38,962 nucleotides of DNA from a virus (Duplodnaviria; Heunggongvirae; Uroviricota; Caudoviricetes): positions 1 through 38,962 of the IMG/VR virus record IMGVR_UViG_2703718778_000007; one strand, given 5' to 3'. The position numbers and the translations under genes are program-made. Position 1 is the first letter of the stretch. Each line of letters begins with the position of its first letter. Shown one piece after another: positions 34,521 to 37,490 of the stretch. The notes beneath the pieces were generated by a model. That model was not told where the DNA came from and searched no databases. It saw only the letters and a list, made by a program, of their open reading frames with translations.

Positions 34521-36341
34521 ATGTCAGATATCACCGCAAATGTTGTGGTCAGCATGCCTTCGCAACTCTTCACTATGGCTCGTTCTTTTAAAGCCGTAGC
34601 TAATGGAAAGATTTATATCGGTAAAATTGACACTGACCCTGTAAATCCTGAAAACCAGATTCAGGTTTATGTGGAGAACGAAGACGGTTCTCACGTTCCT
34701 GTTTCGCAACCAATCATCATTAACGCTGCTGGATATCCGGTATATAACGGACAGATTGCCAAGTTCGTTACTGTGCAAGGACATTCTATGGCTGTGTATG
34801 ATGCGTACGGTGCGCAGCAGTTTAATTTTCCGAATGTGCTGAAGTATGACCCTGACCAACTAAGACAGGATCTTGCTGGACCTGATGGCTATTTTCTTAT
34901 TCCATCCCTTATACAAAAATGGAAAGATGAAGGCGACCTTCGCGGATGGGGAGTTGGGGAAGTTGCTTTCAACGCAGCTATGACTGAGATATCAGAAAGT
35001 GGCGGCGGCGTTCTTTATGTGAATGAAGACATCATTTTTAGTACAATTCCTATCATGCATAAGTCTGGGGTTACTGTTTACTGGAATAATCATCGTGCAA
35101 TTGTTCCTGCCGGTTTGAGTTCAACATATGCATATATAATGGATGGTGGTGCCGATACCCCATCTTACGACAACTCCGATCATTTTACGCTAGCTAACAA
35201 GACGAATTGTTATGGTCTGCGTCTTGAGGCATCTGACTATACTGTAGGTGTGAATGCTATTGGTGTATGTGTGAGGCATTGCTACGGATGGACTTACGAA
35301 GGGGGAGCGATTATCGGATTTAATAATGGTGGTTTCTACGAGACTAACAACTACGAAGGAAAAGCCAGCAAGTTCACTCTAGTTGTAGCCAACACAAGAC
35401 TTGATAATTCTGTAGGATTTGAAAGTAACTCAAGTGATAGTTGGTTTAGTGAAATAGCGCCTGTTGGTTATTCAATTGGAGAAAAGTTTAACAAGAGTGC
35501 AAACGTAGTTGAAAAATTCCACTCTTGGGGTAATACAGTTGATAACCTTGTTGGTGTAATGGGGAAAATGAACACCGGCATTGTAATAACCGAGAATGCC
35601 GGTTTTTCCACATACAGGGATATAATTTTAGATACTCCAGTAAGGAAAAATACTGGCATTGCACCATCGCGCTCTAACGGCGGAGTTGGTGTAATTTGCG
35701 ACGCTTGGGACTGCGTTCTTGACGGTGTTCTTGTAATACCATCCAAAAATGACTTGGTAGCAAAAAGCACTTTACCAATGATTACCACGACTCAAAGGTC
35801 GACAATAAAAGATTTTCAGGTGTCATCAGAACAGTATGCGACCGATATATGGATTTCATTTGAAAACAATTCAGGGATAGCCAGGAATCACGTTTCAGGA
35901 TATGGGTATGCTGAAAAAATGCGCACAGGAATGACCTTTGGACCTAATTCTGGGGCTGTACTTGCAAGTGCTGATGGTGTAACTATGTCGGGTCAAACAC
36001 TTTCTTCCGGTATATGGCATAACACATTAAGTTTTTCCATAGCTACAACAATAGCAGCTATACCATCAGCAACAAGCGATGTAATTGTAAATATAGCTCC
36101 TGTTTATGGCATTAAATCTGGATTTGGAGGTGCAGTTAAGGGTGGCCTGTACGCATTTTACTACGCTACAGCAAACTCAGCTAAACAATTATATGATGTT
36201 TCCTTAGAGGTAGTGTCAGATAATACAGCTAAGTTCTTATTGACATTCATAGATGGAACTACTCGGTACGCACACTGGACAGATGTATCTAACGGTTCAG
36301 CAAGGGTTATTTCAGTATCATGTAATATTGAAGTCAAATAG
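34521..36341 (+). CDS. Tailspike protein (conserved N-terminal head-binding domain, divergent receptor-binding domain)
   Basis: ATG at 34521 ([43 protein letters not shown]) aligns with P22/Sf6 tailspike N-terminus; RBS GGAG. Confidence 0.85.
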
Positions 36342-36347
36342 TAATAT

Positions 36348-36372
36348 ACAGCCACTTTTATATAGTGGCTGT
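36348..36372. terminator. Hairpin between convergent tailspike and acyltransferase genes (probable bidirectional terminator)
   Basis: ACAGCCACT-TTTATAT-AGTGGCTGT, 9-bp stem. Confidence 0.4.
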
Positions 36373-36383
36373 AAAAACCGTTA

Positions 36384-37490
36384 TTACTTGTTAAATCTGC
36401 ACTCTATGTGTTTATAAGTGAATGCAGATGCTAAAATCGTTATTGAGAGACAAATCACAGAGTATATTATTAACTGAGTTGTGTTTGTTTCAGACAGATT
36501 AACAAACTTAGAGGCTATTCTGTAAAATACATGCAGCACTGGTTGATGCAGTAAGTAAATGCTATAGCTAATTTCCCCTAAGAAAGCGATAGACGGAATG
36601 CTTAATAACCTTGGTTTTAGCACAACGCAAGACGCAAACATAAGTGATATCATGATAAATCGATAAAAGCTATATTGTTTTACATCGAAATAGAATGACA
36701 TATAAAACAAAAACGCAAAAACTATATATATAACTGCTCTAAGTGATGTTTTTTCTATGTTTATTTCTTTGATTTTTGCGCAAAGAGCCCCAGCTACAAA
36801 GTACGACCACAACACTTTATCTTCATAGAAATCGTTGATCAATACAAAGCACCCAAAAGCAATTACCATGTACTTGAATTTTTTAGTATAGAGAGCAGTC
36901 GCTAAGAATGGGATAGATGCATAAAACTTCCACTCATATGGGAGTGTCCACAATACTATATTTAAAGTAGCATCTCTATGTGCGCCCCAGTATAGCTCAG
37001 TTCCAAAAAAACCAAACCCAAATATTTTAAGTAATTGAGTGACAAATAAAGGAAGGTCTAATTTCCCTAACATCTGTGAAAAATATATTACAGATATTAA
37101 AGTAGCGGTAAATAGATATAATGGAACTAATCTCTTTATTCTTTTTGCGTAAAATGATGTAAAGTCTATTTTATTATTTGAAAGTATTTTTGAAGAGAAC
37201 AGAAATCCAGTTATGCAAAAAAATATCTGAACACCCAAGGCACCAGATTGGCTGAAAAGATAAAAGTTAGAGTAATCAATATTCTTAGTTTTTATCAACA
37301 TATCACCAATGGCGTAAGCAGAGTGGTTGATGAAAACGGCGATACATGCAAAACCCCTGAGTCCTTCAATGTACTGAATTTTGCCCTGATCTGTAGACTT
37401 TCTAATGAAAATAGATGTTGCCATTATTGGTACAGCAAGCATGGCCAAATAGATGCAAAAGAAAGACAATGGGTAGTTATAAAGCGGCAT
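36384..37490 (-). CDS. Acyltransferase-3 family membrane protein (O-antigen acetyltransferase-like, lysogenic conversion)
   Basis: 368 aa, multiple TM helices, AT-rich, located between tailspike and integrase as oac is in Sf6. Confidence 0.75.
   Translation of the reverse strand: MPLYNYPLSFFCIYLAMLAVPIMATSIFIRKSTDQGKIQYIEGLRGFACIAVFINHSAYAIGDMLIKTKNIDYSNFYLFSQSGALGVQIFFCITGFLFSSKILSNNKIDFTSFYAKRIKRLVPLYLFTATLISVIYFSQMLGKLDLPLFVTQLLKIFGFGFFGTELYWGAHRDATLNIVLWTLPYEWKFYASIPFLATALYTKKFKYMVIAFGCFVLINDFYEDKVLWSYFVAGALCAKIKEINIEKTSLRAVIYIVFAFLFYMSFYFDVKQYSFYRFIMISLMFASCVVLKPRLLSIPSIAFLGEISYSIYLLHQPVLHVFYRIASKFVNLSETNTTQLIIYSVICLSITILASAFTYKHIECRFNK

Follow-up and report, generated by a model that had tools for sequence, protein, structure and literature searches.

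A P22-like prophage module of Escherichia coli combining a chimeric tailspike, probably directed against the O91 antigen, with a convergent gene for a putative O-antigen acetyltransferase

Acetylation of the O-antigen by enzymes that prophages encode beside their tailspike genes is textbook knowledge for Shigella and Salmonella and is also known for Escherichia coli O157, in the case of phage phiV10. In the genome record of phage Sf6, the tailspike gene (plus strand) is followed by a terminator, the acetyltransferase gene oac (minus strand), the oac promoter, the integrase gene int (minus strand), and attP. In phage Sf101, oacB is located convergently and directly behind a P22-type tailspike gene, and in P22-like and lambdoid prophages the slot between tailspike and int can be occupied by a gtrABC cassette, which acts by glucosylation via undecaprenyl-phosphate-glucose (Und-P-Glc). 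Here we analyse a tailspike gene and a convergent acyltransferase gene at positions 34521-37490 of the IMG/VR virus record IMGVR_UViG_2703718778_000007, the complete analysed stretch of which (38,962 nucleotides) is referred to as the window. The region is most likely that end of a P22-like prophage (Lederbergvirus, HK620/Sf6-type) of E. coli, integrated at argW, which serves receptor recognition and serotype conversion, and we consider it likely that it encodes, as a whole, an O91-directed tailspike and an O-antigen O-acetyltransferase for lysogenic conversion. This reading starts from the gene structure, the domains and sequence motifs, the fold class, the synteny with Sf6, the linkage of the acyltransferase gene to the tailspike gene, and the enrichment of O91 among the hosts.

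The tailspike gene (34521-36341, plus strand) encodes a protein of 606 amino acids; the longest open reading frame (ORF) begins at 34473, and the ATG at 34521 was adopted as in all homologues and in Sf6 gp14. Residues 1-113 (34521-34859) form the head-binding domain, which anchors the spike in the particle and matches PF09008 (Head_binding) with an E value of 8.8e-66. Residues 1-118 align with the solved N-terminal domains of Sf6 gp14 (7sg7) and P22 gp9, and over the N-terminal 113-118 residues identity to Sf6, HK620, and other P22-like tailspikes amounts to 82-96% (about 82% to Sf6 gp14 over residues 1-135). DNA similarity to Sf6, Sf101, HK620, and dozens of P22-like phages breaks off at 34858, and the adjoining receptor-binding domain (residues 114-606; 34860-36341) has no match to the C-terminal domains of the Sf6, HK620, or P22 tailspikes. 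The tailspike is a chimera: its anchor is conserved, and a receptor domain obtained by horizontal exchange takes over from about residue 114. A preliminary description of this DNA, made from the sequence alone, had proposed a P22/Sf6-type head-binding domain of about 110 residues followed by a switch to an unrelated C-terminal domain, and both proposals agree with these results; that the C-terminal part is also AT-richer is correct (41.0% GC versus 43.7% in the head-binding part), but the difference amounts to only 2.7 GC points.

For the receptor domain, neither a Pfam or NCBIfam family nor a PDB sequence match was found, and a single match over 42 residues of the neck was obtained with PHROGs. 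The AlphaFold model, calculated with 30 homologues, is beta-rich, with pLDDT values above 90 for the last approximately 110 C-terminal residues, and the predicted fold consists of a short helical neck, a right-handed parallel beta-helix, and a C-terminal beta-sandwich. The beta-helix that the preliminary description had considered for the part beyond residue 115 or so is thus reproduced at the level of a predicted fold class (mean pLDDT 67), which is that of tailspike depolymerases. Six acidic residues in the beta-helix (E260, E279, D306, E311, D371, and D442) are invariant among the 30 homologues and are candidates, and only candidates, for a catalytic function. The receptor domain is probably an O-antigen depolymerase.

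The receptor domain is widely distributed. Among 5.8 billion proteins, it has over 100 cluster representatives with 70-100% identity, in which it is fused to three types of anchor, namely the P22 Head_binding domain, Tail_spike_N (PF18668), and a T7 tail-fibre N-terminal domain plus Tail_spike_N. The version with the P22 head-binding domain occurs in prophages of E. coli and Hafnia. The best phage matches (81-83% amino acid identity; 79-85% at the DNA level, from about residue 114 to the end) were found in the Kayfunavirus phages pO91 (OR204650) and PH1061 (OQ680138) and in the 151-kb phage ECO340P1; identity is about 70% in Hafnia phage Meifeng and Salmonella phage LPST94, and relatives at 69-77% come from Hafnia, Yersinia, Citrobacter, Buttiauxella, and one Salmonella phage. 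The tail proteins of pO91 and PH1061 carry the T7 tail-fibre N-terminal and Tail_spike_N anchors instead of the P22 head-binding domain, and in the lytic phages pO91, PH1061, and ECO340P1 no conversion gene adjoins the spike gene, unlike the situation in the window. In the three phage records, the proteins are labelled merely as 'tail protein' or 'hypothetical protein', and our literature search found no description of the tail proteins of pO91, PH1061, or ECO340P1. As judged by sequence comparison, the receptor domain is a shuttling module that appears to have been moved between anchor types. A P22-like prophage located by ybhB-bioA (locus L018, 6001-8885) also ends in a tailspike gene with this receptor domain (89% amino acid identity) and has no conversion gene; its presence there indicates transfer of the domain among prophages whose integration modules differ.

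Convergent to the tailspike gene and separated from it by 42 bp between the two stop codons is a gene (36384-37490, minus strand) for a membrane protein of 368 amino acids, which belongs to the acyltransferase-3 family and is designated AT3 in the following. Residues 39-354 match PF01757 (Acyl_transf_3) with an E value of 2.5e-34 and a score of 119 bits versus a cut-off of 31, a fused SGNH domain is not present, and the best PHROG is 3333, 'O-acetyltransferase' (E 4e-44). With a GC content of 33.3%, the gene is clearly AT-rich, since the values elsewhere in the window range from 41.0% in the receptor domain to 47.8% in int and 48.2% in the first 34 kb. Within 50,697 phage records, AT3 is at most 30% identical to every phage-encoded protein, the best match being OacB of Sf101 (30% over 91% of the length); identity to Sf6 Oac is 29% over 172 amino acids in a local and 20% in a global alignment, and that to Salmonella acetylases of the GtrC/Oac type is about 26% or less. 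AT3 is therefore not a close orthologue of any characterised O-antigen acetylase; it has no match to NCBIfam equivalogs, and a sequence search of the PDB gave nothing with an E value of 0.1 or better. Among the 5.8 billion proteins, the cluster formed at 90% identity comprises 71 member sequences, all source-named members of which are from E. coli, and the nearest homologue other than AT3 itself is 51% identical, all others 42% or less.

AT3 was examined in an alignment of 10 sequences with Oac and OacB and, separately, in one of 56 homologues. Across Oac, OacB, and 55 homologues, residues H56, F90-F91, R117/R120, W181, L183, E186, and E363 are invariant, and R45 is invariant or nearly so. H56 is located in the first core helix, R117-x-x-R120 aligns with R73/R76 of Oac, and of the further FFxI(S/T)G positions, G95 shows no variation across the 10 sequences and T94 none across the 56 homologues. 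The histidine, RxxR, and FFxI(S/T)G residues are known from Oac and OafA to be functionally critical, and the motif residues of Sf6 Oac are kept in AT3. AT3 is 35 residues longer than Sf6 Oac and has one additional N-terminal transmembrane helix; OacB of Sf101 has the same N-terminal extension. The AlphaFold2 model of AT3 (pLDDT 88.5, pTM 0.89) is all-helical with about 11 transmembrane helices, compared with about 10 peaks in the hydropathy profile, and the only consistent matches to solved structures, although weak (E 0.04, TM score about 0.4), were to HGSNAT, an acetyl-CoA-dependent transmembrane acetyltransferase. By analogy with Oac and OacB, AT3 is probably an integral-membrane O-antigen O-acetyltransferase of the AT3-only type and its gene a lysogenic conversion gene.

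The order and orientation of the genes in the window are the same as in Sf6, with which the prophage also shares argW-type integration and an integrase gene that is 96% identical at the DNA level. The Sf6 terminator occupies the same place as a hairpin at 36347-36373 of the window (10-bp stem, 7-nt loop, recognised on reading the sequence, with a terminator-like match on the minus strand), which is probably a transcription terminator. Sf6 differs in its tailspike receptor domain, which is unrelated in sequence, and in its host, which is S. flexneri instead of E. coli (probably O91). In Sf101, the integrase and the receptor domain of the tailspike both differ from those of the window, and OacB, at 26-30% identity, is not an orthologue of AT3; the gtrABC cassettes share the slot, but they act by glucosylation rather than by acetylation and their proteins are unrelated. 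The PF01757 match, the 42-bp spacer, and the synteny with Sf6 bear out what the preliminary description had stated, i.e. that an AT-rich acyltransferase gene lies convergently in the position of Sf6 oac, and the comparison with characterised acetylases, for which it had called, revealed distant homology only. Its suspicion that the module may not match characterised P22, Sf6, or HK620 modules was likewise justified, as near-identity to a characterised phage pair was found for neither part: the closest relatives of the receptor domain are unannotated proteins at 81-83%, and AT3 does not exceed 30%.

Comparison of related prophages delimits the acyltransferase cassette. In strain MB06231, nothing is present between tailspike and int, and homology to the window stops at 36373 and restarts at 37811. 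In strain 30COLEC, the slot contains gtrC-like, gtrB, and gtrA genes (locus L004, 6800-9566), and homology restarts at 37647. The cassette can thus be placed at approximately 36374-37646. The 314-bp spacer between AT3 and int accordingly includes a cassette-specific part upstream of AT3 (37491-37646, minus strand), which is not common to 30COLEC, MB06231, or Sf6, and is followed by an int-proximal conserved spacer (37647-37810), which the gtrABC locus of 30COLEC has in common with the window (96.9% identity from 37647 on). The slot between tailspike and int takes alternative cargo, i.e. AT3, gtrABC, or nothing. The gtrC-like gene of 30COLEC has no second copy in a set of 5,426 complete E. coli genomes.

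At least 50 assembly blocks encode exactly this AT3 protein. In all five loci examined, and in addition in strain GPEC1292, its gene adjoins an intact tailspike gene of the same receptor type, with receptor domains of 92-100% amino acid identity. The linkage is one-way, as this receptor type also occurs without AT3 (in 30COLEC, MB06231, and the ybhB-bioA prophage). Among the assemblies with AT3 or this receptor domain are GCA_043761805.1, which is 100% identical to positions 34000-38962 of the window, GCA_028244015.1, GCA_012352625.2, GCA_016660705.1, and GCA_012722215.1. AT3 is identical at 367-368 of 368 residues where the adjoining tailspikes differ by up to 40, and this higher conservation suggests that the cassette either spread recently or is under strong constraint. 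The genes for relatives of AT3 with 39-41% identity (P0003, P0004, P0008), where contigs were long enough to show their position, immediately follow tail spike or tail fibre genes, in convergent orientation, in prophages of other types, one of them siphovirus-like with gtrABC alongside and one with an epsilon15-like lysis cassette.

Several observations concern the mobility of the module. The whole module is present in a single complete genome, that of GPEC1292 (locus L002, 3287-3403 and 3362-4693), whose prophage has suffered a deletion: a truncated ral abuts a DNA-ejection gene, and the genes for replication, lysis, and head are absent, but tailspike, AT3, and int have remained intact. A 55-bp piece of the 3' end of int (37811-37865) recurs upstream of oacB in Sf101 (L017, 4292-4346), by dacD in GPEC1292 (L003, 42302-42356), and in GCA_016660705.1 (L011, about 9626-9680). 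In the latter assembly, the pair of tailspike and AT3 genes (98.4% DNA identity) is located by dacD and not at argW, and the 55-bp piece is the sole remnant of int. This piece resembles a recombination boundary, by means of which the conversion cassette could pass from one integration module to another. In the O91 strain YZ3-11 (NZ_CP127004.1, 4494610-4500004), two genes of the acyltransferase family (629 and 655 amino acids) adjoin intS/argW; the prophage differs from that of the window and has tail-fibre assembly genes, and 76 bp are common with 37574-37650 of the window, upstream of AT3. Acyltransferase cargo at the intS/argW slot may be recurrent in O91 strains.

To assign a receptor, the 5,426 complete E. 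coli genomes were surveyed, and three of them (GPEC1292, MB06231, and 30COLEC) proved to encode the receptor domain, with the same result at megablast and blastn sensitivity. GPEC1292 and MB06231 carry the O91 wzx/wzy cluster, with wzy genes at least 99% identical to those of strains named O91 and O91:H21. As O91 wzy is present in only 27 (0.5%) of the 5,426 genomes, two O91 strains among three hosts correspond to a hypergeometric P of 7e-5, a value derived from three genomes only. The receptor domains of GPEC1292 and MB06231 are 92.3% and 88.4% identical to that of the window, and the two strains have different tailspike and wzy alleles. The sole complete genome with the AT3 gene, GPEC1292, is O91, and the O-antigen locus is about 350 kb away from argW. 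In addition, the closest lytic relative of the receptor domain bears the name pO91. The enrichment among the hosts and the name of this phage make O91 the likeliest receptor, and that the O91 O-antigen is indeed recognised by this tailspike seems to us reasonably probable.

An O91-specific depolymerase, Dep6 of podophage PHB19, has been reported (Chen et al. 2020, as cited in PMC10621286). Dep6 (QHI00738, of PHB19, MN481365; accession from the supplement of PMC10408124) is likewise a tail-associated spike, in this case of a T7-like phage, and probably shares the serogroup, but it differs in having 1,025 amino acids, a weak, sub-threshold pectate-lyase signal, and no detectable sequence similarity to the receptor domain. 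Classification of the latter as a Dep6-type depolymerase was rejected, the best BLASTP hit against Dep6 having an E value of 4. If directed against O91, the receptor domain would represent a second solution to this antigen, unrelated to Dep6. When 19 genomes of serogroup O91 were screened for Lederbergvirus and Uetakevirus prophages, none was found that gave an assignable O91 receptor-binding protein (PMC10408124), and an O91-associated P22-like tailspike is therefore absent from that catalogue.

The receptor domain might target a glycan other than O91, be it one of the O21/Salmonella O38 type, the antigens of several serogroups, or a capsule, and the link to O91 would then be coincidental or historical. 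The third host, 30COLEC, has to be considered here, as its receptor domain is 92.7% identical and its O-antigen cluster belongs to the O21 family, with a frameshifted wzx, and is not O91. The occurrence of relatives at 69-77% identity in Hafnia, Yersinia, Citrobacter, Buttiauxella, and a Salmonella phage points in the same direction, as does the report that similar receptor-binding proteins sometimes occur in prophages from several serogroups (PMC10408124). However, the 30COLEC prophage is degraded to a remnant, in which a second integrase gene and an HNH gene immediately precede the tailspike gene, and this state, together with the frameshift in wzx, suggests that the O-antigen locus of the strain may have changed after lysogeny. 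Against the 0.5% background of O91, two of three hosts with different tailspike and wzy alleles, along with the name pO91, speak for the O91 antigen, and we regard another target as unlikely. For the spike itself, an adhesin-type function, i.e. glycan binding without depolymerase activity, appears very unlikely to us.

The sequence of AT3 leaves the acceptor glycan unspecified, and AT3 proteins acylate other glycans, too. The enzyme could act on a different envelope glycan, such as the enterobacterial common antigen (ECA), colanic acid, capsule, or peptidoglycan, or could transfer a group other than acetyl, and would then be a general fitness moron. While the functional breadth of the PF01757 family, the lack of a match to any equivalog model, and an identity of just 20-30% to proven O-antigen acetylases would be in line with such a role, the gene occupies the slot that holds oac in Sf6 and gtrABC in 30COLEC, is strictly linked to one type of tailspike in the loci examined, has its closest relatives directly behind tailspike genes and once beside gtrABC, and finds its best phage-family match in the PHROG 'O-acetyltransferase', all of which makes this reading quite improbable. 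That the module is a copy of an already characterised phage pair, as the 82-96% identity of the N-terminal 113-118 residues to Sf6, HK620, and other P22-like tailspikes might suggest, is hardly credible, in view of a receptor domain that matches neither the C-terminal domains of the Sf6, HK620, and P22 tailspikes nor Dep6, and of an AT3 that stays at or below 30% to every protein in the phage records. An O91-directed tailspike with an O-antigen acetyltransferase remains the preferred explanation, against which, besides the serogroup of 30COLEC and the unspecified acceptor of AT3, the following points have to be set. The mean pLDDT of 67 of the receptor-domain model corresponds to moderate confidence, and catalytic residues are not assignable from it. 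In a scan for sigma-70-like consensus sequences on the AT3 coding strand upstream of the gene, no site passed, and the totals of the promoter scan were no higher than in shuffled sequences, so that a promoter of AT3 is inferred only. The O91 repeat is not known to carry O-acetyl groups, and we know of no acetylated O91 variant on record; the predicted acetylated O91 would thus be an undescribed variant.

In the mechanism that we propose, the beta-helix domain of the virion would bind and cleave the O91 O-antigen, by which the outer membrane would be reached. The phage would then integrate at argW, and the low-GC AT3 gene would be expressed in the lysogen from its own upstream region. AT3 would move acetyl groups from cytoplasmic acetyl-CoA to a hydroxyl group of the O-unit on the periplasmic face, and the antigen altered in this way would be a poorer substrate for this type of tailspike, including those of lytic phages that share the receptor domain. 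Depolymerase activity, O91 as receptor, the O-antigen as acetyl acceptor, the promoter, and superinfection exclusion are the elements that we infer, all but the choice of O91 by analogy with what is known of Sf6 Oac, Sf101 OacB, and the phiV10 acetyltransferase. With regard to expression, a GGTG sequence is found on reading the sequence 7 nt ahead of the AT3 ATG, and the gene's own promoter is presumed, in analogy to Sf6, to lie within 37491-37646. Phase variation of the Dam/OxyR type, as in the gtr operon of P22, appears unlikely, as a single GATC was noticed on reading the 314-bp region upstream of AT3. This region also contains an inverted repeat (GGCCCC...GGGGCC; 37581-37608, minus strand) with a 16-nt loop, which is followed by TTGCCATATT; the repeat could be an insulator of AT3 from read-through of int or a regulator binding site.

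Collinearity with HK620 and other P22-like phages extends over the rest of the window. Upstream of the tailspike gene are the DNA-ejection genes (gp16-, gp20-, and gp7-like ORFs), the last of which stops at 34049, followed by the immI region with an mnt-like gene for an Arc/Mnt repressor (34139-34432, minus strand; Pfam Arc, E 1e-14, and Repressor_Mnt, E 3.3e-14), which is divergent from the tailspike gene. The latter is thus the final gene of the late operon, behind the ejection proteins and the immI (mnt) region, as is characteristic of P22-like tailspikes. The mnt-like gene stands alone, without arc or ant between ejection genes and tailspike, unlike several related prophages, which have arc and ant at this position. 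At the other end, int (37805-38962, minus strand) encodes an IntS-type tyrosine integrase of 385 amino acids with the Pfam domains Phage_integrase, Phage_int_M, and Arm-DNA-bind_3, and its start codon is at the final base of the window; in identical or near-identical chromosomal loci, the integrase gene is followed by tRNA-Arg (argW) and yfdC. At the start of the window, an ORF on the plus strand (1-1248) encodes a sugar/proton symporter of the LacY family with 415 amino acids (PF01306, E 1.7e-193), which resembles the sucrose permease CscB and belongs to the host chromosome rather than to the phage. Similarity to HK620 begins near 1690, which places the left prophage junction at roughly 1300-1700. 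Both ends of the window fall exactly on start codons.

O91 is among the main serogroups of non-O157 Shiga-toxin-producing E. coli, and a structure of its O-antigen repeat has been published (Kjellberg et al. 1999, as cited in PMC7685785). If the reading as an O91-directed tailspike with an O-antigen acetyltransferase is true, the tailspike would offer a candidate receptor domain against O91, without relationship to Dep6, that could be used in detection, typing, or phage engineering, and AT3 would be the source of an O91 antigen variant O-acetylated by a prophage enzyme, with possible effects on serotyping and vaccine epitopes; this variant could also render some O91 strains resistant to therapeutic phages similar to pO91. 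A tentative and rather doubtful extension is that AT3 founds an undescribed clade of phage-borne O-antigen acetyltransferases, carried immediately behind tailspike genes by several prophage types with no relationship to one another, that O-acetylated O91 protects the lysogens against the set of phages sharing one receptor domain (P22-like, T7-like, and the 151-kb phage ECO340P1), and that the receptor domain is a second type of O91 depolymerase. Conceptually, the module is nothing new, as it would represent the strategy of Sf6, P22, and phiV10 in another serogroup; its interest lies in the probable assignment to O91, in the spread of one receptor domain over unrelated phage groups, and in the phage-borne AT3 clade.

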